Source: a phage. From it: DNA of 49,773 nt. The DNA lies in sequence record PZ715804.1, one strand, 5' to 3'. A program made the position numbers and the translations under genes. Every line of letters starts with the position of its first letter. Position 1 is the stretch's first letter. The notes beneath the pieces were generated by a model that had not been told where the DNA came from, made no database searches, and saw only the letters and a program-made list of their open reading frames with translations. Positions 12,699 through 49,773 of the stretch are shown piece after piece.

Positions 12699-12727
12699 GA
12701 CCACATAGAAAACAAAGAGGGTATTTC

Positions 12728-12904: not shown

Positions 12905-12926
12905 CAATATCATTCATAACCTTACG

Positions 12927-12956: not shown

Positions 12957-13021
12957 GCGTTGTATCAAGTAAATTTGAAGGTTAAAATCAACTCACTTGT
13001 TCAAAAATATATGGTGAGATT

Positions 13022-13725: not shown

Positions 13726-14126
13726 TGAAACTGAAGAAAACGTGCATTGCGATTGCAGTGGCTGTTGGCGTTATTTCCCTATCCGGTTGTTCGACGGCAT
13801 CTGCCCTGAGCGGTTTAATCGGATCTAAACCGGAAGTTACAGCACAAATCGGAGAGGAGAACACAAAGCAATTAGCAGGAGTAACCGCAAAATCCGAAGA
13901 TAAGCGAGATGTTAAAGTTGAGAAGTCCAATGTAGGAAAGATTGACTCTTCCTTGAAGAAGTCAATTGAAGTGTCAACCATTAAGGCTAACACGGTTAAC
14001 GCTGAAAGCATCACAGTAACAAAACCGGAAAACTGGTACGATGCTATCGTTGGCTGGATTCTCGTTTTTATCGGTCTATTGCTGGTTTATTTTTCACTCC
14101 GTAAGGACGAAAAAAAGGAGGCTTAG
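13722..14126 (+). CDS. unimolecular spanin (T1 gp11-type)
   Basis: 134 aa; N-terminal lipoprotein signal with lipobox LSGC and C-terminal transmembrane helix [15 protein letters not shown]. Confidence 0.75.
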
Positions 14127-14141
14127 CCTCCTTTGTTATTT
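14111..14141. terminator. bidirectional terminator between spanin gene and leftward genes
   Basis: Perfect palindrome AGGAGGC-TTA-GCCTCCT flanked by A-run and T-rich run. Confidence 0.7.
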
Positions 14142-14336
14142 GTACCTTTTTACGTTAAGTAGTAACTCCCCATCCTGGTCGCAAAGATTATGCTCGCTTT
14201 CGTTACTGGCCCTCATTGAAGTGAGCAACAGACTCAACAACCCTTGCTCAAATTCTTCTTTCGTAAGCTGGAGCCTTGCGCACAATTCGACGTTCCGATC
14301 TATCAATGTTTCTACGTTCTCCAAACAAATCCTCAT
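14136..14336 (-). CDS. hypothetical small protein
   Basis: ORF track; GGAGAG RBS before ATG; overlaps 3' end of next ORF in another frame. Confidence 0.3.
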   Translation of the reverse strand: MRICLENVETLIDRNVELCARLQLTKEEFEQGLLSLLLTSMRASNESEHNLCDQDGELLLNVKRYK

Positions 14337-14655
14337 CACTCATCTCTCCAATGTGCATCATTTCCCACGTATACCGATTGTTGTAGCCATCAATACACAT
14401 CAGCTTCATCATTACCGGGCGCTTAATCTTTCCCTTGCACCAGTAAAACCCATCCCTGCAATCAAGATAACCCTCAGTTACACAGCGTGAGCAAAACTCC
14501 TTAGATAGCGCGCTTGTAAATTCACGGCGAGTCATTCCTGCGGCCTTAGCAAATCGCTCACTTTCCTTGTGGGCGTATATAAATTTCGCTATGTGCTGTC
14601 GAGTGTATTTGTCGTAACCTTCGCAGAACCTGAACAGATCTAAAAGAAGAAGCAT
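14248..14655 (-). CDS. hypothetical Cys-rich protein
   Basis: 135 aa; FCSRCVTEGYLDCRDGFYWC cluster suggests metal binding. Confidence 0.45.
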   Translation of the reverse strand: MLLLLDLFRFCEGYDKYTRQHIAKFIYAHKESERFAKAAGMTRREFTSALSKEFCSRCVTEGYLDCRDGFYWCKGKIKRPVMMKLMCIDGYNNRYTWEMMHIGEMSDEDLFGERRNIDRSERRIVRKAPAYERRI

Positions 14656-14659
14656 ATTA

Positions 14660-16228: not shown

Positions 16229-16257
16229 CACAATAAACTCCTTAGTTGACGGCGTGA

Positions 16258-16302
16258 ATGATACACCGTCAATGGTACACGCGTTTTGCAAAAAGTGCTA
16301 TT
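16258..16302 (-). promoter_or_regulatory. motif-spacer-(-10)-hairpin cassette (minus strand) upstream of the DUF3987-like ATPase gene
   Basis: Minus-strand reading TAGCACTTTTTGCAAAAC, 22 nt spacer, TATCAT. Confidence 0.5.
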
Positions 16303-16304
16303 GG

Positions 16305-16721
16305 TTATAAGTATTTGGCCTCAAAGGTTGTGCCGTCTGCGATACTAAAACCCACCTCTTCGCGGAATAAGGTCCAGCGGCAACCGTCCTCATCAAAGAT
16401 GTAACCAGCTACGCCACCGAGAGCGCGACCGCTTTCAACCTGGTAACGCTTTCCAACCTTGAATGATTTTTTCATCGTGTTGCGATGGTCAAGCCCGGTG
16501 CATTTAAGCGTTTTTGTTTTTAACTCGGTGAACTTCGCGAAGAAGATTTCATCAGATCCGTGAATCTGTAATTCATCATGCTCTTCAAGTTTTAAATACT
16601 TCCCGCATTTTAACTTTACTTCGCGAGTGCCATCATAGCGCTCACGACCTTTATACAGATTGTTTACTTCGAATCCTGTGATTTTGTCTGCTGAAGTGCA
16701 TTTAAGTTTAATGGTTTTCAT
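16305..16721 (-). CDS. hypothetical protein with internal repeats of the MKxxKC small-domain type
   Basis: 138 aa; AGGAG RBS within CCAATCAGGAG context; repeats IKLKCTSADKITGFEVNNLYKG and LKCTGLDHR...VGKRYQV. Confidence 0.5.
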   Translation of the reverse strand: MKTIKLKCTSADKITGFEVNNLYKGRERYDGTREVKLKCGKYLKLEEHDELQIHGSDEIFFAKFTELKTKTLKCTGLDHRNTMKKSFKVGKRYQVESGRALGGVAGYIFDEDGCRWTLFREEVGFSIADGTTFEAKYL

Positions 16722-16801
16722 TGCGTTCGCTCCTGATTGGTTATCTTGAATAAGGTCACTTTATCAAATGACCTTACGGCAATATTAACAAATCGTGCTA
16801 T

Positions 16802-17011
16802 TTACCAGGGAATATAATCATCAATGTCCTCATTGATATCATCACCAGGTAACTTAAAGTTAGGATCATATTCGCTTTCAGCATCCATATCCATATCACC
16901 AATAGCCTCATCAAGTGTTATTTCTTTATATGCGACCTTGATGCACCACTCGGCACTAAGCCCGACATCAAGTGCTGCAAAATAACGAGTCCAGAAATTA
17001 TCTTGTTCCAT
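16802..17011 (-). CDS. small highly acidic protein with SSB-C-tail-like terminus
   Basis: 69 aa; about 28 percent Asp/Glu; ends DDINEDIDDYIPW; GGAG RBS. Confidence 0.5.
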   Translation of the reverse strand: MEQDNFWTRYFAALDVGLSAEWCIKVAYKEITLDEAIGDMDMDAESEYDPNFKLPGDDINEDIDDYIPW

Positions 17012-17014
17012 TAA

Positions 17015-17239
17015 TTAGCTCCACGAATTAATGTAAATCGAGTTAGCCTCAAGCGTTGCACGAACGTCCGCATCTGTTGCATTTATCAGTCGAGGGCCTG
17101 GCACGCTTCCGATAACACTATTTCCGTTACGTGTCTTAGTTACCGTCATTGAAATAAAGCCTGAAGACTTATCCATTTTCACAACTACACGGCCTTTTGC
17201 GTTCAAGTGCTTGATGATATTCTCAACTTTAATGCTCAT
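17015..17239 (-). CDS. hypothetical protein
   Basis: 74 aa; AAAGGA RBS. Confidence 0.5.
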   Translation of the reverse strand: MSIKVENIIKHLNAKGRVVVKMDKSSGFISMTVTKTRNGNSVIGSVPGPRLINATDADVRATLEANSIYINSWS

Positions 17240-17455
17240 TTTAATTCCTTTGTTTCGTTTGGTGTGGGAGTAATATACCTCACTCCCTGGTGTGTGTCTT
17301 TAGCAATTTGTGCTATCAGTACTCAGAAATTACTTTGCACTCTTTGATTGTTCCTCCTAGCACTGATTTCTGCATCATTGCTTTTTGGCGACTATCGTAA
17401 ACGCGAACATTTTTTACGCTATTAAACTTGCCTGTATAAAAGGTGTGAACATAAA

Positions 17456-17776
17456 TCATTTTTTACCGTCCCATGTTTGATATGCCGTAACCAGGTTAAT
17501 GCTATGGTCGAACTCGTCAACGCTAAGCGATCCAATTCGAACAAGCTCCTTGTTGTGCTTAATGTCAATCATCAGGCTGTATGGATGACCTGGCACGTAT
17601 TTAAATAGACGCTTGCTGTCGGCAATGTCTGCGTTGATTCCGTAGAATCGGCCTACTGCCGCCTTAACGCGCTCCATGATGTTTTTTTCGTGGATTGCCG
17701 CCGCGTTATTCAGTGCCGCAACCGTGCTTCCGTTAATCTTCGGTGACTTCGTTGTGATTTTGTAAGTGTGGTTCAT
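17456..17776 (-). CDS. hypothetical protein
   Basis: Start at internal Met (MNHTYK) behind AGGGGGA RBS. Confidence 0.5.
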   Translation of the reverse strand: MNHTYKITTKSPKINGSTVAALNNAAAIHEKNIMERVKAAVGRFYGINADIADSKRLFKYVPGHPYSLMIDIKHNKELVRIGSLSVDEFDHSINLVTAYQTWDGKK

Positions 17777-17792
17777 TATTCCCCCTAACCAG

Positions 17793-17993
17793 TCAGGATA
17801 GCTTTCGAGCTTCATCAATGATAACAGGCTCAAGGCGTTCAAGTCGAACGCGGAACGTGTTCATAAATCCATCGTTATTCTTCAATAACTCGAAAGCGTC
17901 CGTAGCTTCAATGGCGCTACTACCCATGTAAGAGATCACGCGCTTCTGTGTCTTTCGTGAGATCGCCACCACTCGGTAAATGTTATCGCTCAT
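17793..17993 (-). CDS. hypothetical protein
   Basis: Start at internal Met (MSDNIY) behind AAGGAGG RBS. Confidence 0.45.
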   Translation of the reverse strand: MSDNIYRVVAISRKTQKRVISYMGSSAIEATDAFELLKNNDGFMNTFRVRLERLEPVIIDEARKLS

Positions 17994-18357
17994 ACAATGC
18001 CTCCTTAACACGGTCCGCAATGCAGGAGTTGACGGTGATTGAATAGTTAGCCACGCCCCACAATGCGACGTTTCCAAGCTCTGTACGCATAGATGGGTTA
18101 TTTAGCTGGATGATTGTCTCGCCAGTATCGTTATCGACGAAACGAGATGCGCCAGAACGGTCCACCACGCGCGTTACGCGGTTAACACACTCCATTGCAT
18201 CACTTACACCGTAATAAGAGCTTAGAGCGGCTCTCACGGCTTTCTCTTGCTTGTTGTAAATCTTGCGCGCAATGTTCTCGATCGCTACGTTCTCTTTCTC
18301 GTCAGTCTGGATTGCTGTGCTTGCTGAGAAGTCCAGGTCTACGAATTGTTTAAACAT
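17983..18357 (-). CDS. hypothetical protein
   Basis: 124 aa; GAGGAAAG RBS; downstream of minus-strand cassette 18389-18433. Confidence 0.5.
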   Translation of the reverse strand: MFKQFVDLDFSASTAIQTDEKENVAIENIARKIYNKQEKAVRAALSSYYGVSDAMECVNRVTRVVDRSGASRFVDNDTGETIIQLNNPSMRTELGNVALWGVANYSITVNSCIADRVKEALYER

Positions 18358-18388
18358 GATTCTTTCCTCATTTGCTGTTGATGGGATG

Positions 18389-18433
18389 ACTATACCAGCC
18401 CTCCCGCATTTTCGTTTAGCAAAAAGTGCTATT
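18389..18433 (-). promoter_or_regulatory. motif-spacer-(-10) cassette (minus strand)
   Basis: Minus-strand reading TAGCACTTTTTGCTAAAC, 22 nt spacer, TATAGT; then GAGGAAAG RBS. Confidence 0.5.
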
Positions 18434-18618
18434 TAGAATTTTACATCTTCAACAAGCTCAACCATTTTGTAACCAAGTCGATAGGAGTCACCGAACAACA
18501 ACAGACCCATAAATTCATCGTTGGTTATTGACTCCTTGCCAACAGTTTTAAGCTCTCCGTTGTGAATCACAGTATCGCCGATCTTGATTTCTGATTTATG
18601 AACTAATTTTGTTTTCAT
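18433..18618 (-). CDS. hypothetical protein
   Basis: 61 aa; weak RBS; stop lies inside a motif copy. Confidence 0.4.
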   Translation of the reverse strand: MKTKLVHKSEIKIGDTVIHNGELKTVGKESITNDEFMGLLLFGDSYRLGYKMVELVEDVKF

Positions 18619-18633
18619 TTACTGGCCTGTTAA

Positions 18634-18819
18634 TTAGAAGAAAGATACGTAGTTTGCAATACCTTTAGCGTCGTCGTTAGGCATTGCTTTGACAGCAAGA
18701 TCATAACCAGCCTCGACCTTCTGCTTTGCTGACTCTTCGTTGTATCCCCAAATAACCAGGATCTTAACTACGTTTTCTTTGTTCAGAACTTTAAGGTCTT
18801 TAGTGATGCGACGTGCCAT
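18634..18819 (-). CDS. hypothetical protein
   Basis: Start at internal Met (MARRITK) behind GAGGAA RBS; downstream of cassette 18853-18898. Confidence 0.45.
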   Translation of the reverse strand: MARRITKDLKVLNKENVVKILVIWGYNEESAKQKVEAGYDLAVKAMPNDDAKGIANYVSFF

Positions 18820-18852
18820 TTTGTTTTTCCTCAATCTCGTTTCGATGAGGTA

Positions 18853-18898
18853 ATTATGCCAAATCACACCGATCGAGTTTTAACAAAAAGTGCTATTT
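18853..18898 (-). promoter_or_regulatory. motif-spacer-(-10) cassette (minus strand)
   Basis: Minus-strand reading TAGCACTTTTTGTTAAAAC, 22 nt spacer, CATAAT; motif also encodes the Dcm-like C-terminus. Confidence 0.5.
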
Positions 18899-19584
18899 GC
18901 GATTGCTTTAAAAAATCCCCTGGGCGACAGGGATCGTATCAGCTTAGTTTTGGCAGACTTGCCGCCTAGCTTACTGTGCTGTGCAGAGTACCCGTCAGGT
19001 AGGCTTACAGGTTTTCTCTCGGGCATGACAAAATCGTCAGAGGTCCAAAGGCAAGTTTTCTTCGGGTAAGCATCGCGCGGCGCAATATACATCGGGAACC
19101 AGGGGTGTGAGTCATTCTCAGGAAGATAGCCGCCATACTCCCAGGGATTGAAGGAGTGATTTGGTTTTCTCCAGGCAGATGACAGGACGCTAACCGGATT
19201 CTCAATGATGTAAGTCACGCCCAGGGCGTCGCCAATATTTGCAGCAATCCGGGCGGTGGCAACAGCCTTCTCCTGGAATAACGGATCGCGTTCACGCTTT
19301 CTTGCGAAGTGAGCGGCACCACTAACAGCCAGGTCAGTGCACGGAGGGAAAGCCATAATGAAATCCGGCTTGCCATACACGCCAGCGATAGCATCACGCT
19401 CAAACGCTGCGTCAATGAACACGTTCACATACTCAATGTTCTGATGCTCCACTCTGGCATTGCACTTTGCATAATCCCCGTGATCGGCTCCGTCAAAGTT
19501 GAAGCACATCACCTTGTGACCTTGCTTAGCCAGTTCATGACCTGCAAGGCCGGAACCGTCGAATAGCGACCAGATTAATTTCAT
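18880..19584 (-). CDS. dcm: DNA cytosine-5 methyltransferase-like protein (short, Dcm-like)
   Basis: 234 aa; motif I LFDGSGLAG, motif IV FPPCTDLAVSG, ENV-like IIENPV; C-terminus ...ANSTFC* is encoded by the repeated motif. Confidence 0.6.
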   Translation of the reverse strand: MKLIWSLFDGSGLAGHELAKQGHKVMCFNFDGADHGDYAKCNARVEHQNIEYVNVFIDAAFERDAIAGVYGKPDFIMAFPPCTDLAVSGAAHFARKRERDPLFQEKAVATARIAANIGDALGVTYIIENPVSVLSSAWRKPNHSFNPWEYGGYLPENDSHPWFPMYIAPRDAYPKKTCLWTSDDFVMPERKPVSLPDGYSAQHSKLGGKSAKTKLIRSLSPRGFFKAIANSTFC

Positions 19585-19616
19585 TGCAAATATCCTCTGA
19601 TTGGTTGATGTGATGA

Positions 19617-19662
19617 ATCATACCCTGCCAGCCTGACCAAATCGTTAGCAAAAAATGCTATT
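19617..19662 (-). promoter_or_regulatory. motif-spacer-(-10) cassette (minus strand) upstream of the Dcm-like gene
   Basis: Minus-strand reading TAGCATTTTTTGCTAAC, 22-23 nt spacer, TATGAT; then CCAATCAGAGGA RBS. Confidence 0.45.
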
Positions 19663-20276
19663 CCAATAGTTGCTCATTATTCCATCATCAATGGAATATC
19701 TGGAATAATTACGATCCCGATTGATCTCGAATGATGAAATGTGATTGTTGCATGGCGTGCAACTGTTGATGTGATTATTGCTTAGAATGCAATGATTGTG
19801 AGAGGGAGAATTTAGTGTTACCCGGTTCGCCTGGTGGTCATCTCCATTTTTAGCAAAACGTGCTATTCGTCTATGCGGTAGTTGTAATTGTCGTAATAGT
19901 TGTATACCATCAGGGGTGTTACAAAATGGCCCGAGAATCGATAGGCCTATAGATAATAAAATATCTATATATAATAATAAGATAGATAATATATATTTAT
20001 TTATTTATTATATTATATATTGGTATGTAATCGGCGTAATAGGTGCAACCGCATTTTTTGAGGGTGGCATATATTTCGTGATGCATAGTATAAAAAACAT
20101 ACTATTCCGCGCGCATAAATAGATGTGCTTGCTTTTATAGAAAAAGTCGGTTGCATCGGTTGCACTGGTTACAAAAATAAAAAATGCAGCTATAGACATT
20201 GACGCGCCTGACGTTGTAGCTGTAACATGTTTTTCGAAGTTGAAAGTTACACCCATAGACAACGAGGTATAGACAA
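19663..20276. promoter_or_regulatory. repeat-rich intergenic control region between divergent early blocks, with AT-rich core (about 19938-20018) and three ATAGACA words (20192, 20255, 20269)
   Basis: No convincing ORF; short palindromes (TTCCAT-N5-ATGGAA, GTTGCATGGCGTGCAAC), repeated TGATGTGATT words, about 80 bp of almost pure A/T. Confidence 0.5.
19847..19869 (-). promoter_or_regulatory. motif copy (minus orientation) with no downstream gene, at the edge of the AT-rich control region
   Basis: Plus-strand TTTTTAGCAAAACGTGCTATTCG. Confidence 0.35.
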
Positions 20277-30141: not shown

Positions 30142-31710
30142 ATGATTCAATGGGAAGACCTTAACGCAACGCAGAAGTTAGCGATCAAGAAAATGAGCGA
30201 GGCCAATTTCGAAAAAATGATTCGGATCTGGTTCCAGCTTATGCAGGCGCAGCAGTTCCAGCCTAACTGGCATCACCTTTACCTATGTCACGAAGTGGAG
30301 GAAATAATTGCAGGCCGACGCGGCAACACTATCTTTAACGTCACGCCTGGTTCCGGTAAAACTGAAGTGTTCTCAATTCACCTTCCGGTATACGCAATGC
30401 TCAAGTGTAAAAAGGTGCGAAACCTTAACGTGTCGTTTGCCGACAGCTTGGTTAAGCGTAACAGTAAGCGTGTCCGTGAGATTATCAGCAGCAACGAATT
30501 TCAAGAGCTATGGCCTTGCAAGTTCGGCACATCGAAAGACGAGGAGATGCAGGTTCTTAACGAAGATGGAAAGGTTTGGTTTGAGTTGATATCCGCAGCG
30601 GCTGGAGGTCGTATTACAGGTTCGCGTGGTGGCTACATGACGCCGGGATTCTCCGGTATGGTAATGCTCGACGATATCGACAAGCCTGATGATATGTTCT
30701 CAAAGGTTAAGCGTGAGCGTACGCATATGCTACTGAAGAACACCATTCGCTCGCGCCGTATGCACAACGAAACGCCAATCATCGCAATTCAGCAGCGACT
30801 ACACGCACAGGATTCAACATGGTTCATGATGAATGGCGGGATGGGGATCGAGTTTGATCAAATCTCAATTCCGGCACTGGTGACTGAAGAATACGGAAAG
30901 ACGCTTCCTGACTGGTTACAACCATACTTCGAGCGCGACGTTTTGTCGTCTGAGTATGTAGAATTGGATGGAGTTAAGCATTACTCATTCTGGCCCAGCA
31001 AGGAAAGCGTTCACGACCTGTTAGCTCTTCGAGAAGCGGACCAGTATACCTTTGACTCTCAGTATCAGCAGAAGCCGATCGCGCTTGGTGGCTCCGTGTT
31101 CAATTCGGAGTGGTGGACTTATTACGGCAGCAGCCTTGACGCTGATGAGCCGGATCCTGGTAAATATGATTACCGTTTTATCACCGCTGATACCGCTCAG
31201 AAGACAGGTGAGCTAAACGACTACACAGTCTTTTGTTTATGGGGTAAGAAAAACGATAAGGTTTACTTTATCGACGGCATTCGCGGAAAGTGGGAAGCGC
31301 CGGATATGGAGAAGCAATTTACCGCTTTCGTCAACCAAGCATGGAGGCACAATAAATCAATGGGGGTGCTTCGTAAAATCTATGTGGAAGATAAGGCGAG
31401 TGGTACGGGCTTAATCCAGAATCTAAGGAAAAAGACTCCGATATCCATCACTCCATTGCAGCGTAACAAAGACAAAGTTACCCGAGCTATGGATGCCCAG
31501 CCAGTTATTAAAGCCGGGCGCGTGGTTCTGCCAGAAGAGCACCCCATGCTTGCGGAAATTATCGCGGAACATAGCGCGTTCACTTACGATGACACGCATC
31601 CGCACGACGATATTGTCGATAACTTCATGGACGCTGCAAACATTGAACTACTGACAATTGACGATCCTATCGAGAGAATGAAGCGACTCGCCGGGATGGT
31701 TAAGCGGTAA
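30142..31710 (+). CDS. terminase large subunit
   Basis: About 522 aa; Walker A-like VTPGSGKTEV, Walker B-like MVMLDDIDKPDD; start at second ATG behind GGGAGA RBS. Confidence 0.85.
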   Translation: MIQWEDLNATQKLAIKKMSEANFEKMIRIWFQLMQAQQFQPNWHHLYLCHEVEEIIAGRRGNTIFNVTPGSGKTEVFSIHLPVYAMLKCKKVRNLNVSFADSLVKRNSKRVREIISSNEFQELWPCKFGTSKDEEMQVLNEDGKVWFELISAAAGGRITGSRGGYMTPGFSGMVMLDDIDKPDDMFSKVKRERTHMLLKNTIRSRRMHNETPIIAIQQRLHAQDSTWFMMNGGMGIEFDQISIPALVTEEYGKTLPDWLQPYFERDVLSSEYVELDGVKHYSFWPSKESVHDLLALREADQYTFDSQYQQKPIALGGSVFNSEWWTYYGSSLDADEPDPGKYDYRFITADTAQKTGELNDYTVFCLWGKKNDKVYFIDGIRGKWEAPDMEKQFTAFVNQAWRHNKSMGVLRKIYVEDKASGTGLIQNLRKKTPISITPLQRNKDKVTRAMDAQPVIKAGRVVLPEEHPMLAEIIAEHSAFTYDDTHPHDDIVDNFMDAANIELLTIDDPIERMKRLAGMVKR

Positions 31711-31727
31711 TAAATGAGATATAATCA

Positions 31728-31752
31728 GGGCTGTCAATTGACGGCCCTTTTT
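31728..31752 (+). terminator. terminator-RBS junction between terminase and portal genes
   Basis: GGGCTGTC-AATT-GACGGCCC then TTTTT then ATTGGAGGA. Confidence 0.6.
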
Positions 31753-31764
31753 ATTGGAGGAAAC

Positions 31765-33048
31765 ATGAAAATTGTTAAGCATGATGGATATAACGATATT
31801 TTTAACGGCGGTGCAGACGGATCGCCTAAGCCATTCTTTATGTCTGATGCATCATATCACGTCGGTTCTTTCTACAACGACAACGCAACCGCGAAGCGAA
31901 TTGTGGATGTTATCCCGGAAGAGATGGTGACGGCTGGTTTTAAAATGTCAGGCGTTAAGGATGAAAAAGAGTTCAAGTCTTTATGGGATAGCTACAAACT
32001 TGATTCAAGTCTGGTGGATCTTCTTTGTTGGGCGCGACTTTACGGTGGCGCGGCGATGGTGGCAATCATCAACGACAACCGGATGTTAACCAGTCAGGCA
32101 AAGCCTGGAGCCAAACTTGAAGGCGTCCGAGTTTACGATCGATTTGCTATCACTGTTGAAAAGCGAGTCACCAATGCAAGATCCCCTCGCTATGGTGAGC
32201 CTGAAATCTACAAGGTATCCCCTGGCGACAATATGCAGCCGTATCTGATTCATCACTCAAGAGTCTTTATTGCTGATGGTGAGCGAGTAACGCAACAGGC
32301 AAGAAAACAGAATCAAGGATGGGGAGCATCGGTATTGAACAAGTCACTGATTGATGCAATCTGTGACTATGATTACTGTGAATCTCTGGCTACTCAGATC
32401 TTGAGACGTAAGCAACAGGCTGTATGGAAGGTCAAAGGTCTTGCCGAAATGTGTGATGATGATGATGCTCAGTACGCCGCGCGCCTGCGACTTGCTCAGG
32501 TTGATGATAACTCCGGCGTGGGCCGTGCGATCGGTATCGATGCTGAGACTGAGGAATATGACGTTCTCAACTCTGATATCAGCGGAGTTCCTGAGTTCTT
32601 ATCAAGCAAGATGGACCGCATCGTCTCCCTATCCGGGATCCATGAGATTATCATCAAGAATAAGAACGTAGGCGGCGTATCAGCGAGCCAAAACACAGCG
32701 CTTGAGACTTTCTATAAGCTAGTCGATCGCAAGCGCGAGGAAGATTACAGGCCGCTTCTTGAGTTCTTGTTGCCGTTCATTGTTGATGAGGAAGAGTGGT
32801 CGATCGAGTTTGAGCCTTTGTCTGTTCCGAGTAAGAAAGAGGAATCAGAGATCACGAAGAATAACGTTGAGTCAGTCACGAAGGCTATCACTGAGCAAAT
32901 CATCGATCTGGAAGAAGCTCGCGACACGTTGCGATCCATTGCCCCTGAGTTCAAACTCAAGGATGGTAATAACATCAACATTCGCGAACCGGAAGAAACA
33001 ACCGAACCGGAGCCGGGATTAGGGGAGAAGTTAGAAGATGAAAATTAA
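31765..33048 (+). CDS. portal protein (putative)
   Basis: About 427 aa; start behind terminator plus GGAGGA RBS; acidic C-terminus; position after terminase. Confidence 0.6.
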   Translation: MKIVKHDGYNDIFNGGADGSPKPFFMSDASYHVGSFYNDNATAKRIVDVIPEEMVTAGFKMSGVKDEKEFKSLWDSYKLDSSLVDLLCWARLYGGAAMVAIINDNRMLTSQAKPGAKLEGVRVYDRFAITVEKRVTNARSPRYGEPEIYKVSPGDNMQPYLIHHSRVFIADGERVTQQARKQNQGWGASVLNKSLIDAICDYDYCESLATQILRRKQQAVWKVKGLAEMCDDDDAQYAARLRLAQVDDNSGVGRAIGIDAETEEYDVLNSDISGVPEFLSSKMDRIVSLSGIHEIIIKNKNVGGVSASQNTALETFYKLVDRKREEDYRPLLEFLLPFIVDEEEWSIEFEPLSVPSKKEESEITKNNVESVTKAITEQIIDLEEARDTLRSIAPEFKLKDGNNINIREPEETTEPEPGLGEKLEDEN

Positions 33049-33799
33049 TGGCGTTGCAACACAGTGGCGCTATCCTGAAATGAGCGAGCGCGCAATGTCG
33101 CGCTCCCTACAGGATGTTGCAGCCAAACTAACTGAAAAAATGCGTGACGAATTAAAGCCGATGAAATTTGACGCTACTGACGAAGAGATAGATCAGACAG
33201 AAAGGTCATTGCTTGATTACGTCGAATCACTCATCGCTCCGATTATTGGTTCTCTATCATCCGTTGCGCTCGCGATCTATAAATTCAACTCTAAGCAGTG
33301 GCTGCGCATCGCTCGCAATGCTGGAGGTAAGAAGAATCAAGCCGTGATGCTACTAGCCCTGATTGGTCCTACCGCTGCCGAAAGCTGGTACTCAGGACAA
33401 TATAATCTGTGGCGATCGCAGGTGACTACTTCTATCAGGAAATTTGCCGCCAACATGGTTACTGATTTCACTGATAAACTTCGTGCGGCATCCGGTCAGG
33501 GTAAAAGCAAGGATTTTGTTGTTGAACTTGCTAAGGAGCGATTTGGTATTTACCGTAGCTGGGCCAAAAATAGAGCGTCGGGAATTGTCGGAACCTGGAA
33601 CAGTAGACTGATGCGGCAGCGCATAAAAGACGCTGGTGTATCTTACTATTTCTGGCGCGGGGTGATGGATTTACGCGAACGTGAAAAACATGTAAGATGG
33701 GAAGGTAAGCGCATAGCGGTAGATTCCGATCACGTATTCCCGGGTGAAGAATACAACTGCCGCTGTTGGGCTGTTCCAGACTTTTCTACAGGAGATTAA
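33038..33799 (+). CDS. head morphogenesis / minor capsid protein (putative)
   Basis: 253 aa; position after portal; overlaps portal stop. Confidence 0.5.
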   Translation: MKINGVATQWRYPEMSERAMSRSLQDVAAKLTEKMRDELKPMKFDATDEEIDQTERSLLDYVESLIAPIIGSLSSVALAIYKFNSKQWLRIARNAGGKKNQAVMLLALIGPTAAESWYSGQYNLWRSQVTTSIRKFAANMVTDFTDKLRAASGQGKSKDFVVELAKERFGIYRSWAKNRASGIVGTWNSRLMRQRIKDAGVSYYFWRGVMDLREREKHVRWEGKRIAVDSDHVFPGEEYNCRCWAVPDFSTGD

Positions 33800-33801
33800 A
33801 A

Positions 33802-34914
33802 ATGAAGGCAAAGCAAAGATTCGATTCAGTAAAAATCAAGGCTCACTTTGATGATAACGGTTTTTTAGTTGACCGCCCAATCGTGGCGCGAATCGGCGCT
33901 CAGGTTTACAAAACGCCGCACGGCGATCGAGTTGAGTTCCGTCCGGCGTCCGAAGTTTTCAAGCAAGATTCCTTGCAAAGTTTTGCAGGCAAGCCGATAA
34001 CAGTCGGTCACGTAACGGTGACACCCCAAAATGCTAAGGACGTTGTTGTCGGATCGTGTGCTGGCGCTGGTATTGCTTCAGGGGTTGGCGTTGAAGTTCC
34101 TTTGAGTATTTACAGCGACTACGCGATCAGCAAAGCTAAAGCGAAGGAGGCCGGGGAATTATCTGTAGGGTATACGTCGGTAGATATTGATAAGCCCGGC
34201 TGGGGTTCAAATGAGACTGGAGAATATATCTTCGAAGAGGATATGAAACAGGACGAAGCGCCGCCTGAAGGTTGGGTGAAATTCGACGCGGTACAAACTA
34301 ATATCAAGGTCAACCATATTGCCCTAGTTTTTAAAGGTCGTGCGGGAATTGCTAAATTAAATCTTGATGCCGAACAGGAGTTCCCGTATGATAATAACGT
34401 TCAATTAACTAACGAGGACAAGCAAATGAAAAAAATTAAGATCGACTCAGTTGATGTGGAAGTAACCGAAGACGTTGCGAACCATATCGAAAAATTAACC
34501 GCGCAGATTGCCACCATTCAGGGGAAAGCTGATGGCTTCGAAGCTGAGCGCGATGCGCTGAAGGTTAAGGTTGACTCTCTGCCGGAACTTGTGAAGGCCG
34601 AGGTAGAGAAGCAAAAAGCCGATGCCGCCGCACGCGCAGAAGTTACCGCAGTAGCAGAAACCGCAGGCGTCAAACATGATGGTCTTGATATCAAAGACGT
34701 CAAGATTGCCGTAGTTAAAGCCATGCTTGATAAAGATGTTAGTGAAAAATCAGACGCATATATCGACGCTATGTTTGATGTTGCTAAAGATTCTGATATC
34801 ATGGCTATTCAGCGTAAAGCAGTAAAAGGCGACTCTATCGAAGGCGGTAAGCCGGAAGAGAAAAACGACGCCGCGCCTGTTACGCCAAATTCACGTTTAA
34901 GCAAAGTAATGTAA
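33802..34914 (+). CDS. capsid scaffolding-like protein (putative)
   Basis: Start at internal Met (MKAKQRF) behind GGAG RBS; C-terminal half coiled-coil-like and Ala/Lys/Glu rich. Confidence 0.4.
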   Translation: MKAKQRFDSVKIKAHFDDNGFLVDRPIVARIGAQVYKTPHGDRVEFRPASEVFKQDSLQSFAGKPITVGHVTVTPQNAKDVVVGSCAGAGIASGVGVEVPLSIYSDYAISKAKAKEAGELSVGYTSVDIDKPGWGSNETGEYIFEEDMKQDEAPPEGWVKFDAVQTNIKVNHIALVFKGRAGIAKLNLDAEQEFPYDNNVQLTNEDKQMKKIKIDSVDVEVTEDVANHIEKLTAQIATIQGKADGFEAERDALKVKVDSLPELVKAEVEKQKADAAARAEVTAVAETAGVKHDGLDIKDVKIAVVKAMLDKDVSEKSDAYIDAMFDVAKDSDIMAIQRKAVKGDSIEGGKPEEKNDAAPVTPNSRLSKVM

Positions 34915-34925
34915 GGGGAAATATC

Positions 34926-35402
34926 ATGGCACAAATTAATGCATCTTATCAGCGAGATATGGCGATTGCGCTTCCGGGTATGGTTGCGGATACTTCAAAG
35001 TACAATATTGACGGCGCTTGTGTCGTTAATGAAGGTGATGTTCTTGTTGGCGCTGCCGTACAAGTTGTTCAAGCTCAGGCGGTTGATGGTCATAAGTTGG
35101 TTAAGGCTCTTACTACCGGAACCACTCCTTACGGCGTGGCAATCCGATCTCACTGGCAGACTGTTAACGCTCAAAATCAGATGATTTACGAAGATGGCGG
35201 CGCTATCAACGTGATGACTTCAGGCCGAGTATGGATGCTTTCCAAATCCACCGAAGCACCAACTTTCGGCTCTGCCGTTAAACTTGATGTTGATGGTCAG
35301 GAAAAATCTGATGGCACGATCGAAACAACCTGGACCTACGCTGGCGGTTGGACTAAATACAAAGATATTCAGCTTGTTGAGGTTCAGTTGCATCAACTGT
35401 AA
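34926..35402 (+). CDS. capsid accessory/decoration-like protein (paralog 1)
   Basis: 158 aa; shares DTSKYNIDGACV...GAAVQVV...TPYGVAIRS core with the next gene. Confidence 0.4.
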   Translation: MAQINASYQRDMAIALPGMVADTSKYNIDGACVVNEGDVLVGAAVQVVQAQAVDGHKLVKALTTGTTPYGVAIRSHWQTVNAQNQMIYEDGGAINVMTSGRVWMLSKSTEAPTFGSAVKLDVDGQEKSDGTIETTWTYAGGWTKYKDIQLVEVQLHQL

Positions 35403-35418
35403 TTAGCGTTTAATATGG

Positions 35419-35450
35419 GGACTATCTTTTTTTTGGATAGTCCTTTTTTT
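35419..35450 (+). terminator. terminator-RBS junction before decoration paralog 2
   Basis: GGACTATC / GATAGTCC stem then TTTTTTT then ATGGAGAAA. Confidence 0.6.
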
Positions 35451-35560
35451 ATGGAGAAATCATTATGGCTTACGAAAATTTGTTCTTGCGCCCCGCGTGT
35501 CCGGGATGGAGAAATCATTATGGCTTACGAAAATTTGTTCTTGCGCCCCGCGTGTCCGGG
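35451..35560. repeat. exact 55 bp tandem duplication spanning RBS and start codon of decoration paralog 2
   Basis: ATGGAGAAATCATTATGGCTTACGAAAATTTGTTCTTGCGCCCCGCGTGTCCGGG twice, 55/55 identical. Confidence 0.85.
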
Positions 35561-36287
35561 AAATATTTCTGATACTTCAACCTACAATATTGATGGAGCT
35601 TGTGTGGCTCAAGGTGACATTGGGTTCGGCTCAGCGGTTCAGGTTGTAGGCATCGTTGACGGTGTAAAAGTTGTGGCGGCGCTTCCTGATGGTGGAACTC
35701 CTTACGGTATCGCTTTCCGTTCCCAATATGAACACCTGAGCGGTAAAATCCTTGACGGTGAAGTGTGCAACGTCGTTTCTCACGGTCGCGTATGGACTCT
35801 TACTTCTCTTGGTGAGGCTCCCAGCTTGTTCTCAAAGTTACAGTTTGGGTCTGGTGGAGTTGTTACTGGTGGATCTGGTTCCGCAGGTTGGACATTTGCG
35901 GGTGGCTTTGTTAAGCATGAAGATGGCTACATCATTGAGGTTCAGGTGAAACAAAATGCTTTCATCGCTCCACCGCCACCGCCCCCTGTCGTTCTTGTTG
36001 AATCTGCTACAATCGCCACTGACAAGGAAAGCCCTCAACCAAACAATGTTACGATCCAGTGTGTAGCTAATGCTCTTCCGGATAATGCAACCGATAAGAC
36101 TGGTAAATGGTCAATCGACGCTACCAATATCGCCACTGTCGATCCGGACTCAGGTCTTGTAACTCCTGTTGGTGGAGAGGTAGTCGGTGATTTCAATATT
36201 ACCTGGACGGCTAACGATGCCAGCAAGACGACGGCAACTATTGCTTATCGCGTAGAAGCAGTGCCAACGCCAGAGGTTGATGCATAA
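35520..36287 (+). CDS. capsid accessory/decoration-like protein (paralog 2) with C-terminal Ig-like domain
   Basis: Start at ATG in second copy of a 55 bp tandem duplication; paralogous N-terminal core; PPPPPP linker then Ig-like segment. Confidence 0.45.
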   Translation: MAYENLFLRPACPGNISDTSTYNIDGACVAQGDIGFGSAVQVVGIVDGVKVVAALPDGGTPYGIAFRSQYEHLSGKILDGEVCNVVSHGRVWTLTSLGEAPSLFSKLQFGSGGVVTGGSGSAGWTFAGGFVKHEDGYIIEVQVKQNAFIAPPPPPPVVLVESATIATDKESPQPNNVTIQCVANALPDNATDKTGKWSIDATNIATVDPDSGLVTPVGGEVVGDFNITWTANDASKTTATIAYRVEAVPTPEVDA

Positions 36288-36307
36288 CATAAAAACACTT
36301 TGACGCT

Positions 36308-36327
36308 TTAACAAAAAGTGCTATTAT
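36308..36327 (-). promoter_or_regulatory. motif copy in inverted orientation upstream of the major capsid gene
   Basis: Plus-strand TTTAACAAAAAGTGCTATTA, the reverse complement of the motif; a hairpin with CATAAT loop follows. Confidence 0.4.
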
Positions 36328-36330
36328 TGA

Positions 36331-36358
36331 AGCCGTGAACATAATCACGGCTTTTTTA
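36331..36358 (+). terminator. terminator before the major capsid gene
   Basis: AGCCGTGA-ACATAA-TCACGGCT then TTTTTT. Confidence 0.65.
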
Positions 36359-36378
36359 TTAACTACGGAGAAGTAATC

Positions 36379-37338
36379 ATGACTACTAAAAAATTTGATG
36401 AAGCAGATAAAAGCAATGTTGAAATGTATCTGATCCAGGCTGGCGTAAAACAGGATGCAGCCGCAACGATGGGTATCTGGACCGCTCAGGAACTACACCG
36501 CATCAAGAGTCAGTCCTATGAAGAAGACTACCCGGTCGGCTCCGCTCTACGAGTATTCCCGGTTACAACCGAACTCTCTCCGACCGACAAGACGTTTGAG
36601 TACATGACCTTTGATAAGGTTGGTACTGCTCAGATTATCGCTGACTATACCGATGACCTGCCTCTGGTTGATGCACTTGGTACTTCTGAATTTGGTAAGG
36701 TGTTCCGTTTGGGTAACGCGTATCTGATCTCAATCGACGAAATCAAAGCAGGTCAGGCAACTGGTCGCCCACTGTCAACCCGTAAGGCGAGCGCGTGCCA
36801 GTTGGCGCATGATCAGCTTGTTAACCGCCTGGTGTTCAAAGGTTCCGCACCGCACAAGATTGTGTCCGTGTTTAACCATCCGAACATCACTAAAATTACC
36901 TCCGGTAAGTGGATTGATGCATCTACTATGAAGCCGGAAACTGCGGAAGCTGAGCTAACTCAAGCGATCGAAACCATCGAGACGATTACTCGGGGTCAGC
37001 ACCGCGCAACCAACATCCTGATCCCGCCTTCCGTTCGTAAGGTTTTGGCGATTCGTATGCCTGAGACAACCATGTCTTATCTGGACTATTTTAAGTCTCA
37101 GAACTCCGGTATCGAAATCGACTCTATCGCAGAGCTTGAGGATATTGACGGCGCAGGCACCAAAGGCGTACTGGTGTACGAAAAGAATCCGATGAACATG
37201 TCCATCGAGATCCCGGAAGCATTTAATATGCTGCCAGCACAACCGAAAGACTTGCACTTTAAAGTGCCTTGCACTTCTAAGTGTACTGGTCTTACAATTT
37301 ATCGCCCGATGACTATTGTCTTAATCACTGGCGTGTAA
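36379..37338 (+). CDS. major capsid protein (putative)
   Basis: 319 aa; position and size; strong RBS; flanked by terminators. Confidence 0.6.
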   Translation: MTTKKFDEADKSNVEMYLIQAGVKQDAAATMGIWTAQELHRIKSQSYEEDYPVGSALRVFPVTTELSPTDKTFEYMTFDKVGTAQIIADYTDDLPLVDALGTSEFGKVFRLGNAYLISIDEIKAGQATGRPLSTRKASACQLAHDQLVNRLVFKGSAPHKIVSVFNHPNITKITSGKWIDASTMKPETAEAELTQAIETIETITRGQHRATNILIPPSVRKVLAIRMPETTMSYLDYFKSQNSGIEIDSIAELEDIDGAGTKGVLVYEKNPMNMSIEIPEAFNMLPAQPKDLHFKVPCTSKCTGLTIYRPMTIVLITGV

Positions 37339-37345
37339 TATTATA

Positions 37346-37372
37346 GGGGCTAACTTAGTTAGTCCCTTTTTT
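37346..37372 (+). terminator. terminator-RBS junction after the major capsid gene
   Basis: 9 bp stem with one G-U then TTTTTT then ATTGGAGAAA. Confidence 0.65.
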
Positions 37373-37387
37373 ATTGGAGAAATCAAA

Positions 37388-37675
37388 ATGGCTAAAGAAA
37401 AAACTGTTGTTATCGTAAACGTTGGTGTAGCTCTTCAGATGTTCCGTCTTGAAGATGGTTCCTTTGCTAAAGTTCTTCCAGATGAAGAGGTCACGCTTCC
37501 GGCGTCCGTTCTTGATTTGCCTGGCCTGCGTTGCTTAATTGCTCGCGAAGAAATCGAAGTTAAAGACGACAGTGCAACCAACCGCAAAATCCGCGCTGAA
37601 ATGGCAAAGATCACTAAGCCAGATCCGTGGGATAGCAAAAGCGTTAAAGAGCTTGAGGACGGCGGCGAATATTAA
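37388..37675 (+). CDS. hypothetical head-associated protein
   Basis: 95 aa between two terminator-RBS junctions. Confidence 0.5.
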   Translation: MAKEKTVVIVNVGVALQMFRLEDGSFAKVLPDEEVTLPASVLDLPGLRCLIAREEIEVKDDSATNRKIRAEMAKITKPDPWDSKSVKELEDGGEY

Positions 37676-37681
37676 TCATCA

Positions 37682-37706
37682 AGGCGCTCATGTAGCGCCT
37701 TTTTTT
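37682..37706 (+). terminator. terminator-RBS junction
   Basis: AGGCGCT-CATGT-AGCGCCT then TTTTTT. Confidence 0.7.
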
Positions 37707-37719
37707 ATGGGGGGTAATT

Positions 37720-38130
37720 ATGAATCAAGAAACTTTAATTGCAGCTGTTGAGCAAATGCGAAAGCTGGTTCCGGCACTTCGTAAGGTTCCAGACGAAACG
37801 CTTTATGCGTGGGTAGAAATGGCTGAGCTTTTTGTATGCCAGAAGACCTTTAAAGACGCATACGTCAAAGCGATCGCTCTTTATGCATTACACCTTGCTT
37901 TCCTTGATGGGGCGCTAAAAGGTGAAGATGAGGATCTGGAATCGTACTCACGCCGCGTTACGTCATTCTCACTGAGCGGTGAATTTAGCCAGACTTTCGG
38001 AGAGGTTACGAAGAACCAGTCAGGGAACATGATGCTTTCTACGCCGTGGGGTAAGATGTTCGAACAGCTTAAAGCGAGACGCCGTGGTAGATTCGCATTA
38101 ATGACAGGACTCCGTGGAGGATGCCACTAA
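37720..38130 (+). CDS. head-tail connector protein (gp6-like, putative)
   Basis: 136 aa; position; N-terminal pattern LIAAVEQMRKLVPALRKVPDE. Confidence 0.45.
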   Translation: MNQETLIAAVEQMRKLVPALRKVPDETLYAWVEMAELFVCQKTFKDAYVKAIALYALHLAFLDGALKGEDEDLESYSRRVTSFSLSGEFSQTFGEVTKNQSGNMMLSTPWGKMFEQLKARRRGRFALMTGLRGGCH

Positions 38131-38501
38131 TGAACTACTCACAGATTGAAAGAATGGCTCGCAAAGGCGTGGCTTTCTTCACCGATCCGTCAAGACCTAT
38201 GAACCTGATAAAACAAGGTGAATACGGATATGATGAAAACGGATTCGAGATCCCACCGATGGAACAGGTTATTCCAATATCCGGCGCGACGAGAAGACCG
38301 AACGCGCGTGAGATTGACGGGGAAACTATCCGCACCTCAGATATTTTGGGGATCTTCAATAATGATCATGAAATAAACGAAGGTGACTATATAGAGATTG
38401 ATGGCATTCGTCATGTTGTCGTTGATGCTCGCCCGGTTCAGGCGTCACTGGAACCAGTTGCCTATCGTCCAGTGTTGCGGAGGGTATCAGTCGGTGGCTA
38501 A
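38121..38501 (+). CDS. head-tail adaptor / head closure protein (putative)
   Basis: 126 aa; position. Confidence 0.4.
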   Translation: MPLMNYSQIERMARKGVAFFTDPSRPMNLIKQGEYGYDENGFEIPPMEQVIPISGATRRPNAREIDGETIRTSDILGIFNNDHEINEGDYIEIDGIRHVVVDARPVQASLEPVAYRPVLRRVSVGG

Positions 38502-38937
38502 TTATCAGATTCGTAGATTTCAAGGCGAGATTGATGCGTGGATTAAGGCAGCTGAAAGCACGTTAGAACATGCCATTGAGATATTCGTAAGGGATGTTCA
38601 CGACGCTCTTGTTAGCCGCTCCCCTGTTGATACAGGTCGATTCAAGGGTAACTGGCAGATAACTTTTAACGAAATCCCTAACCACGCATTAAACCGATAC
38701 GATAAAACTGGCAGTGTCGTAAGAGGTGAGGAGCAGGCCAAAACTTATGGCATGTTCAGCCGTGGCGGCGCGATAACATCAGTTCACTTTTCAAACATGT
38801 TGATTTATGCAAACGCTCTTGAGTACGGTCATTCACAGCAAGCACCGAGCGGAGTTGTCGGTCTTGTGGCATTAAGGCTGAGATCATATATGGCTGACGC
38901 AATCAAGCAGGCAAGGAGACAGCAAAATGCACTATGA
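38494..38937 (+). CDS. HK97 gp10-like tail completion protein (putative)
   Basis: GTG start overlapping previous stop (GTGGCTAA); motif SRSPVDTGRFKGNW. Confidence 0.55.
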   Translation: MANYQIRRFQGEIDAWIKAAESTLEHAIEIFVRDVHDALVSRSPVDTGRFKGNWQITFNEIPNHALNRYDKTGSVVRGEEQAKTYGMFSRGGAITSVHFSNMLIYANALEYGHSQQAPSGVVGLVALRLRSYMADAIKQARRQQNAL

Positions 38938-39325
38938 GTTATCAGCGGCGGCGCGAGCCGCTTTTCTATCAAAGTACAGAAACTTTCCTCACTACATGGA
39001 AAACAGAAATTTCACACCTCCTAAGGATGGCGGCATGTGGCTGAGGTTCAACTACATTGAGGGGGATACGCTTTATCTATCCATTGACAGAAAGTGTAAA
39101 TCTTACATCGCAATCGTTCAGATCGGCGTAGTGTTCCCTCCAGGCTCCGGCGTTGACGAAGCAAGATTGAAGGCAAAAGAGATTGCTGATTTTTTCAAAG
39201 ATGGTAAAATGCTTAACGTTGGTTATATTTTCGAGGGTGCAATCGTGCATCAAATTGTTAAACATGAAAGCGGGTGGATGATTCCGGTTCGCTTTACAGT
39301 ACGAGTAGACACAAAGGAGACTTAA
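38927..39325 (+). CDS. tail terminator-like protein (putative)
   Basis: 132 aa; position before major tail protein. Confidence 0.35.
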   Translation: MHYELSAAARAAFLSKYRNFPHYMENRNFTPPKDGGMWLRFNYIEGDTLYLSIDRKCKSYIAIVQIGVVFPPGSGVDEARLKAKEIADFFKDGKMLNVGYIFEGAIVHQIVKHESGWMIPVRFTVRVDTKET

Positions 39326-39326
39326 T

Positions 39327-39995
39327 ATGCACTTACCAAATGGCGCGCAAATTTTCGTGGAAACCTCTCGCGGAGAAGAGATAGAGGCGACCGCTGTCAC
39401 TAACGAAAAAAATCCTGTTGCTACAGTTGCATCTAAAGGTGACTTAGTAAAAGGTGATTACGTTATTGTAACTCAGTCAACTTGGGCTAAGATGGTTAGT
39501 CGAGTACTAATTGTTACTGACGCTCAGGAAACAAGTATTACTCTTGCTGGAATTGACACTACTGATACTCTTGTTTTCCCGGCTGGCGGTACAATGAGCT
39601 TTGCAAAAGTTACTGGTTGGACTGAGATCCCTTGCGTACAGGAGATTGGTCAGGACGGCGGCGAGCAGCAGTATTACACTTATCAGTGTTTGTCCGACGA
39701 TAAAGAACAGCAGATCCCTACGTTTAAATCTGCAATCTCGCTAACGTACACCTTCGCGCACGAATTTGATAACCCTATCTATCCTATTCTGCGTAAGCTG
39801 GATTCTTCTGGTCAGGTAACTGCGGTTCGGATGTATGTTCCAAAAGCGAACGAGATGCGCATGTGGGCTGGTATCTTGTCTTTTAACGACATTCCGTCTA
39901 CGCAAGTAAACGAAATGGAAACGGTACAACTAGCTGTATCCCTGAAAGGTGACTTTACTTTCATCTCATCCACTCTGGCATCGCCTGGTGCTTAA
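39327..39995 (+). CDS. major tail protein (putative)
   Basis: 222 aa; AAGGAG RBS; position immediately before chaperone pair and tape measure. Confidence 0.55.
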   Translation: MHLPNGAQIFVETSRGEEIEATAVTNEKNPVATVASKGDLVKGDYVIVTQSTWAKMVSRVLIVTDAQETSITLAGIDTTDTLVFPAGGTMSFAKVTGWTEIPCVQEIGQDGGEQQYYTYQCLSDDKEQQIPTFKSAISLTYTFAHEFDNPIYPILRKLDSSGQVTAVRMYVPKANEMRMWAGILSFNDIPSTQVNEMETVQLAVSLKGDFTFISSTLASPGA

Positions 39996-40007
39996 ATACC
40001 ATCCATA

Positions 40008-49200: not shown

Positions 49201-49697
49201 GGCTTGGGGATAACGAGGCGGCACTTGCTCAAAAATTAGACTCTTGGAGCAATGCCAGTTCTACCGGGGCAATGTACGGCGTCAAGCTGGGTCTGAAATA
49301 CAACGGACAGGAATATAGCGCAGGCATGGCTATGTCTCTGATTGGTTCCGGCGCAGCTGTTAAGGCGCAAATTCTATTCGAGGCGTCGCGATTTGCAATC
49401 ATGACAGGGATGAACGGTCAGACTCAGTATCCTTTCGTTGTTGAAGGTAATCAGGTGATTCTTAATAGCGCCATTATTAAGAACGGATTTATCACGAATG
49501 CGATGATTGGTAATGTTATTCAATCGAATAACTATGTCGTTAACAAGGCTGGCTGGAGACTTGACAAGGGTGGAACATTAGAAAACTACGGAAGTGACGT
49601 TGAGGGTGCAATGAAGCAAACTAATACCACAATATCTGTTAGGGATGCGAGTGGTCGCCTGAGGGTTCAGATTGGCAGGTTGACTGGTTCATGGTAA
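46278..49697 (+). CDS. central tail fibre / host specificity protein (lambda gpJ homolog)
   Basis: 1139 aa; size and position after M-L-K-I homologs; fibronectin-III-like middle and coiled-coil C-terminal region. Confidence 0.85.
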   Translation: MIQKVISGSKGGSQKPHNPVEMEDNLISINKIKILLAVSDGEIDETFSLKQLMFNSVPVQNEDGSFNFEGVRAEFRPGTQTQEYIKGMEDSSSEVTVNREVTTDNPYTISVTNKTLSAIRIKMFMPRGVRIESNGDKNGVRVEYEVQQAVDGGSFETVLTDVIEGKTMSGYDRSRRVNLPNFNNQVIFRVVRKTPDSNDSNVVDAIQVRSYAEVIDAKFRYPLTGLLFVEFDSKMFPNQLPTISIRKRWKIVSVPSNYDPESRTYNGNWDGTFKKAWTNNPAWVLYDLMINQRYGLDQKELGIAVDKWALYEAAQYCDQMVPDGKGGTEPRYLCDVIIQSQTDAYKVIRDICSIFRGMSFWNGESISVIIDRPREPAYIFTNDNVVNGDFSYTFASEKSMYTTCNVMFDDEQNMYQQDVEPVFDREATLRFGNNVTSITAIGCTRRSEANRRGRWILKTNLRSTTVNFATGLEGMIPTIGDVVAIADNFWSSNLTMNLSGRLLEVSGSQIFLPLRVDARAGDFIIVNKPDGKPVKRTISSVSADGKTIEVNIGFGFPVKPNTVFAIDRTDIALQQYVVTKIDKGDDDEEFTYKITAVEYDPNKYDEIDYGVNIDDRPTSIVEPDQIPRPENVQVSSESRIVQGMSVETMIVSWDKVPYAVFYDVQWRKDNGNWQNVPQTANKEVYVEGIYAGNYQVRVRSVAGSGTTSGWSNIVAATLTGKQGEPGRPINLTATDDVVFGIRTKWGFSDGSGDTAYTELQQSPDGTVDNASLLSLIPYPQHEYYHSPMPGGNIVWYRVRTVDRIGNVSQWTDFVRGMASTNVDDIIGGISVDIENSPGYEWLVDNATDNAAQNAANAEAAIENALANDKDAIYMKKENGKRKAEYTKSLQLIADETQARVTAVEQLRASFGDQISASNSELREVIATETGALSREIDQLRAEIGDDIQASLTDIREAIANETEARTQADLTLSARLGDNEAALAQKLDSWSNASSTGAMYGVKLGLKYNGQEYSAGMAMSLIGSGAAVKAQILFEASRFAIMTGMNGQTQYPFVVEGNQVILNSAIIKNGFITNAMIGNVIQSNNYVVNKAGWRLDKGGTLENYGSDVEGAMKQTNTTISVRDASGRLRVQIGRLTGSW

Positions 49698-49703
49698 TAT
49701 CAA

Positions 49704-49730
49704 GGGCATCGAGAGATGCCCTTTTCTTTT
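49704..49730 (+). terminator. terminator-RBS junction after the J-like gene
   Basis: GGGCATC-GAGA-GATGCCC then TTTTCTTTT then GGAGG. Confidence 0.7.
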
Positions 49731-49742: not shown

Positions 49743-49773
49743 ATGGCGTACGGTATATCAACTTGGGACGCAA
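49743..49773 (+). CDS. 5' end of a gene truncated by window end (MAYGISTWDA...); in frame with window start if circular
   Basis: ATG behind terminator plus GGAGG RBS; 31 nt to window end. Confidence 0.35.
   Translation, partial: MAYGISTWDA

Follow-up and report, generated by a model that had tools for sequence, protein, structure and literature searches.

The window analyzed here, a 49,773-nt stretch of phage DNA (PZ715804.1), contains an exact 55-bp tandem duplication at positions 35451–35560, across the ribosome-binding site (RBS) and start codon of the gene for the decoration protein gp29. This duplication is most likely not a real biological feature. We consider it very likely that the extra copy is an assembly overlap, which was left untrimmed and was then made internal by rotation of the contig.

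The gp29 locus and its 55-bp repeat

The window represents the complete, circularly permuted genome of a T1-like siphophage (Tunavirus, Drexlerviridae). Its head/tail half is 97–98% identical to vB_Henu5_2, phi2013, IME167 and JMPW1, and the other half is a mosaic with about 92% identity. In phage SH2 the window end runs seamlessly into the window start (29060|29061), and no terminal redundancy or end overlap was found in the window; its size therefore corresponds to a unique genome of 49,718 bp plus 55 bp. The circle is opened at an arbitrary point in the Cor superinfection-exclusion locus, 31 nt into its 'outer membrane protein' gene, which is thus split across the window ends (49743–49773 joined to 1–275). 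A deliberate reorientation point was considered for the window start and rejected, as none of the relatives' records starts there. Position 1 is also not in the reading frame of the 'outer membrane protein' gene; the ATG located there gives an ORF of only 38 codons.

The duplicated segment is flanked by two paralogous genes on the plus strand. The upstream gene (34926–35402) encodes a 158-aa capsid cement/decoration protein similar to T1 gp28 (Pfam Phage_cement, 2.2e-30), annotated as 'capsid decoration protein' in T1 and FCWL1. It is followed by a rho-independent terminator on the same strand (35417–35450), which has an 11-bp stem, a 7-nt loop and a T7 tail and is supported by a terminator scan, MFE folds and the curated T1 annotation (14237–14269). 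The downstream gene, gp29, is intact at 35520–36287 (plus strand) and encodes an Ig-like decoration protein of 255 aa, with matches to Phage_cement and to a C-terminal Big_2 that are both above the Pfam gathering thresholds. Moreover, PDB entry 9kmh ('Decoration protein gp29', 255 aa) aligns with its residues 1–255 to residues 1–255 of this product (E=7.7e-171). With Phage_cement, Big_2 and a T1-like capsid structural homolog, gp29 belongs to the cement/decoration proteins with an Ig-like domain, and the product of 34926–35402 is 43% identical to its N-terminal part. Since the alignment to 9kmh is full length, the ATG at 35520 is the true start and the second copy of the repeat belongs to the intact gene. 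The curated T1 and FCWL1 annotations agree with this start, and the exact gp29 protein is present in many Tunavirus genomes.

The repeat consists of two copies of the unit ATGGAGAAATCATTATGGCTTACGAAAATTTGTTCTTGCGCCCCGCGTGTCCGGG, arranged head to tail. Copy 1, which is the extra one (35451–35505, plus strand), contains the Shine-Dalgarno (SD) sequence GGAGAAA, an ATG at 35465 and 41 nt of coding sequence, and it is absent from the relatives inspected directly. Copy 2 (35506–35560, plus strand) provides the functional SD and the true ATG of gp29, as seen in the alignment to FCWL1 and T1. Between the copies a novel junction, GTGTCCGGG|ATGGAGAAATC, is formed, in which GTGTCCGGG closes the unit and ATGGAGAAATC opens it. 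Tandem Repeats Finder reported 35451–35561 with a period of 55, 2.0 copies, 100% matches and 0 indels. A pattern search tolerating mismatches found exactly two copies, both with 0 mismatches, and gave 0 matches in 100 dinucleotide-preserving shuffles. No other exact tandem duplication with a period >30 is found within the window. The unit opens with the same base (A) that stands at 35561, which leaves a 1-nt ambiguity in the phase of the repeat and limits the junction microhomology to 1 nt. The left edge adjoins the end of the terminator T-tail and coincides exactly with the terminator/RBS boundary. The description given by a sequence-only reading of the window is largely confirmed: the duplication at 35451–35560 is exact (55/55 identity), the unit holds GGAGAAA, the ATG and the first 13 codons (more precisely, 13 codons and 2 nt), the gene starts at 35520, and the duplicated region is the RBS and start of an Ig-domain decoration paralog.

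Some further features of the window were observed around this gene and elsewhere. In the gp29 linker (35975–36035), just past its poly-proline part, two independent −1 homopolymer changes occur in relatives, namely C5 to C4 in IME167 and A3 to A2 in contigs of SRR3470639 and SRR3470631, and each leads to the same 181-aa product without Big_2. These truncations represent either recurrent loss of the Ig-like domain in laboratory-propagated T1-like phages or homopolymer sequencing errors; judging from the two frameshifts, the Ig-like part of gp29 appears to be dispensable in relatives. Another homopolymer difference lies at 37704–37709, where the window has a G6 run, the six G-run relatives inspected have G5 and UP30 has GGAGG. 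The run forms part of the SD region (ATGGGGGGTAATTATG) of a gene that begins at 37720, and a further terminator with its T7 tract lies immediately upstream of it; either a true polymorphism or an error in the homopolymer may account for the difference. The 37720 gene and the 55-bp repeat site share the same terminator-T7-ATGG(A/G)G-ATG layout. In addition, a conserved intergenic motif, AATAGCAC-N5-TTGCTAAA, is present in about 20 copies, 13 of them in 2805–29561 (plus strand) and seven in 16282–40088 (reverse orientation). It often precedes a small hairpin with a TATAAT-like box and then a gene start, and the spacing from motif to TATAAT looks longer than in a canonical sigma-70 promoter. The copies are probably members of one family of phage promoter/operator sites.

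Occurrence of the duplication among relatives

All 42 phage records covering the region have spans about 55 bp shorter than the query 35200–35800, and 11 phage records are 100% identical to this query apart from a span of 546 bp versus 601 bp. When FCWL1 and T1 are aligned to the window, a clean gap of 55 bp faces copy 1. We directly inspected 24 related sequences, comprising five Logan contigs encoding identical gp29 (of 24 read that carry it), eight complete related records, nine further Logan/ENA contigs, FCWL1 and T1, and each of them carries at most one copy. The junction sequence had 0 matches in IMG/VR, GTDB genome contigs and JGI metagenome contigs. The comparison with related genomes that had been proposed as a check thus shows a duplication private to the window, with one copy in the relatives inspected, which favours an assembly artefact over a biological reading.

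The nearest relative, 99.95% identical to the window, is represented by Logan contigs of SRR16039598/599/600, one of 34,899 bp covering window 20017 onward and one of 14,772 bp covering 5202–19973. An alignment of about 36 kb shows about 17 scattered SNPs and a single 1-nt indel between it and the window. The 34.9-kb contig (k=31) passes through the repeat locus with one copy, and in its first 21.7 kb the 55 bp is the sole indel versus the window over 21.6 kb. Its size fits a single copy as well, since the computed end lies at about window 5197 and abuts the start of the other contig (5202) inside a 30-bp repeat. Had this genome carried a real duplication of 55 bp, its k=31 graph would be expected to contain a loop at that site, and the contig should have been interrupted there. 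These runs do not derive from the window's own isolate, so the absence of the repeat from this near-identical, independently assembled genome bounds the age of a real event and does not disprove one.

The 30-bp repeat is an in-frame tandem repeat of 2.3 copies (97%) at 5162–5231, within the minus-strand tail-fibre gene 4016–5572. It is genuine, because it is conserved in Henu5_2 and SH2, and it is also the place where the Logan contigs (k=31) from the nearest relative end. Proteins from the window-private regions were found only in Logan assemblies of a few SRA runs. In fact, a phage 99.95% identical to the window is present in several unrelated-looking runs (SRR16039598/599/600 and SRR29844867), with alleles common to all. 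This recurrence is consistent with T1-like phages being recurrent laboratory contaminants. The window itself is a slightly diverged sibling of this phage.

Origin of the extra copy

When the final k is 55, the de Bruijn-graph assemblers SPAdes, metaSPAdes and metaviralSPAdes deliver a genome that is circular, or circularly permuted, as a linear contig whose first 55 nt equal its last 55 nt. Closing or rotating this contig with the 55-bp overlap left untrimmed would bring its ends together and create an internal, perfectly identical tandem duplication. The real phage would then carry one copy, in the arrangement of terminator, SD and ATG of gp29 that is seen in relatives. With short reads, SPAdes uses 55 as its last k by default, as do its meta modes, which accounts for circular contigs with 55-bp end overlaps; the standard final k values are 55, 77, 99 and 127.

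Such overlaps are documented in the literature. Default metaSPAdes graphs have 55-bp overlaps (PMC12133742), and the ends of a circular contig from the meta mode of SPAdes 3.15 overlapped by 55 bp (PMC8851603). In a phage genome announcement, small end overlaps of SPAdes contigs were cut manually before reorientation (PMC9583785), and the Phage Annotation Guide warns of circularization artefacts and of repeats landing inside contigs (PMC8785237). The genomes of T1-like phages, which use headful packaging, come out of assembly as circles, and a typical workflow for Tunavirus consists of metaviralSPAdes followed by reorientation (PMC13164509). The window resembles circular SPAdes contigs with k-mer end overlaps in having an exact repeat with completely identical copies, a period of 55 that equals a standard final k, a size of one genome plus k with no other redundancy, no counterpart elsewhere and a genome that assembles as a circle. 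However, its copies are adjacent and internal, at 35451–35560 of 49773, and not at the sequence ends or near the record end. The repeat lies 14 kb from the window end, so that a large extra rotation to an arbitrary position must be assumed, which may have been made by the depositor, by a circularization tool or by the pipeline that cut out the window.

A similar case exists in the same genus. For Escherichia phage CLB_P3, GenBank contains two mutually rotated records with 99.99% identity. The record OL770108.1 contains an exact 55-bp tandem duplication at 49602–49711, 10 nt from the record end, which frameshifts a conserved 135-aa ORF (the homolog of window 14248–14655, minus strand). In the independent record OL800706.1 a single copy is found at 5844–5898, within the intact 135-aa ORF. 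The artefactual nature of the duplication is evident in CLB_P3 because it is near the record end and frameshifts a CDS, and from a comparison of the two records it looks like an assembly error in GenBank; the assembly method of OL770108.1 is not given in the paper citing that record. Both cases share the genus, a period of 55, perfect identity, restriction to one record and a repeat-free site in relatives. They differ in that the window repeat is mid-sequence and leaves genes intact, whereas that of CLB_P3 is close to the end and disrupts a CDS. Among eight full related records and the window, these two are the only exact tandem duplications with a period >30, both are of 55 bp and they are at unrelated sites, a pattern that k=55 explains readily and for which a biological cause is difficult to conceive. 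The repeat, its 55-bp size, its privacy to the window, the length of one genome plus 55 bp and the same-genus case are observations, and from our side we infer the assembler used and the rotation step.

The most probable alternative is a genuine and very recent 55-bp tandem duplication, produced by polymerase template switching or illegitimate recombination beside the terminator hairpin and tolerated since copy 2 is intact, with a translated upstream ORF (uORF) of 35 codons that would probably lower gp29 initiation modestly, through ribosome occlusion and stronger pairing of the SD. We regard this as unlikely, and as slightly less likely still a real template-switch duplication beside the hairpin whose translated uORF retunes the amount of gp29 relative to gp28. 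The repeat is present in the sequence as head-to-tail direct copies, it lies away from the window ends, where a raw assembler overlap would be expected, and its left edge is next to a strong hairpin at which stalling is plausible. Small increases in length are tolerated by headful-packaging T1-like phages. The site leaves all genes intact, as by chance only 17% of positions would (Henu5_2 annotation). Viability selection on a real event would favour such an outcome, but this is worth at most about six-fold in likelihood and is weakened because the Ig-like part of gp29 seems dispensable in relatives. In RNA folding, the predicted P(unpaired) of the true SD drops from 0.51 with one copy to 0.29 with two, or from 0.81 to 0.28 when the terminator is omitted; this makes a phenotype conceivable, although the effect is modest and the same result is compatible with a real event or an artefact. 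Spontaneous tandem duplications of dsDNA phages are likewise head to tail, are expected to be identical if recent and are tolerated in headful packagers. However, they usually show several nucleotides of microhomology (typically ≥3 nt) and have no reason to be exactly 55 bp, and none is found in the relatives, including the 99.95% identical one. The single nucleotide (A) of microhomology here is atypical for slippage, which is weak evidence as microhomology is not obligatory. The size equals the SPAdes default k exactly, and in the genus sample only one other exact duplication exceeds a period of 30; it has the same length and is demonstrably assembly-dependent. Moreover, the phage encodes a RecE-like exonuclease VIII and an Erf-like annealing protein (window 1742–3528, relatives' annotation), and a perfect 55-bp direct repeat should be unstable in the presence of its own single-strand-annealing recombinase. 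No signs of selection on the repeat and no diverged copies of it were found among the sequences compared. By a rough estimate, the size coincidence favours an artefact tens-fold before the same-genus control is added, and we judge that the coincidence with k=55 outweighs the argument from the benign location. The sequence-only reading had taken the perfect identity to imply a very recent origin, and this part stands; the assembly artefact, which it offered in brackets, is now favoured over the biological reading on which it went on to build, with expression possibly altered by translational coupling or interference.

Explanations other than an artefact and a genuine duplication are very improbable even when taken jointly. 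One of them is a novel joint from illegitimate recombination of two parental T1-like phages at the terminator/RBS module boundary, each contributing one copy, to which we give hardly any credence. Tunavirus genomes are mosaic, and in more distant relatives query position 307, the left edge of the unit, is exactly where megablast homology starts, so this edge is a divergence boundary in the genus. However, the two copies are identical and the nearest-relative pattern does not switch at the junction. We rejected such a joint since 31000–40000 minus one copy is 99.9% identical to phi2013 and IME167 on either side. The nearest mismatches to phi2013 are at 34923 and 37033, with the 55-bp block as the sole difference in 34924–37032, and in the structural module this block is the sole insertion >3 nt versus Henu5_2 and SH2. 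The least probable of all is that the repeat stems from engineering or cloning, where recombineering or in-vitro assembly, for instance, could leave a homology arm as a scar at the N-terminus of the decoration protein. Homology arms can be about 55 bp long, and decoration proteins serve as display scaffolds in which the N-terminus is among the common sites; but the locus contains no foreign sequence, tag, restriction site or marker, and the rest of it is identical to wild relatives.

Reading frames created by copy 1 and their significance

From the copy 1 ATG, an out-of-frame ORF extends over 35465–35572 including the TGA (plus strand) and encodes the peptide MAYENLFLRPACPGWRNHYGLRKFVLAPRVSGKYF. 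It crosses the true SD and ATG, which bears out the earlier claim of an out-of-frame ORF overlapping the true start; its length had been put at 33 codons and is in fact 35 sense codons. The stop codon (35570–35572) is 50 nt downstream of 35520. Copy 1 also places an ATG at 35451 in frame with gp29, because 55+14=69, so that mechanical ORF calling yields N-terminally extended products of 278 or 290 aa. The product of the 35-codon ORF has no Pfam match, and the 35-aa peptide and the 278-aa and 290-aa extended ORFs have 0 exact occurrences in a collection of 15 billion proteins. If the extra copy is an untrimmed overlap, the 35-codon 'uORF' and both extended ORFs would be its by-products.

We also compared the short ORF with bacterial and phage control by uORFs or leader peptides. 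The similarity is that an SD-led short ORF lies upstream of, and overlaps, the initiation region of a structural gene. However, regulatory uORFs are conserved among relatives and have stops close to or overlapping the downstream start, whereas this ORF is absent from every relative inspected and its stop lies well inside gp29. On these grounds the 35-codon ORF does not belong to the conserved uORFs or leaders. In a real duplication, copy 1 would supply a full SD and ATG for an ORF crossing the gp29 initiation site, and a modest down-tuning of gp29 by occlusion and structure would be expected, not classical stop-start coupling.

With the extra copy as a probable assembly overlap, the significance is mainly one of data quality, and both the window sequence and OL770108.1 deserve a quality-control flag. 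If the copy is left in, gene callers may produce the spurious 35-aa ORF or a decoration protein extended to 278 or 290 aa, the genome size is inflated by 55 bp, and comparative work could be misled into calling a structural variant or a regulatory uORF that does not exist. In OL770108.1 the same signature falsely truncates a conserved gene. These two cases suggest that a search for exact internal tandem repeats of 55, 77, 99 and 127 bp would be a useful automated check of deposited phage genomes. For the biology of T1-like phages, a real duplication would illustrate, on a small scale but neatly, how an interfering uORF arises when an initiation region is duplicated, and, if this uORF did retune gp29, it would be a natural one-step experiment in adjusting the stoichiometry of capsid decoration.
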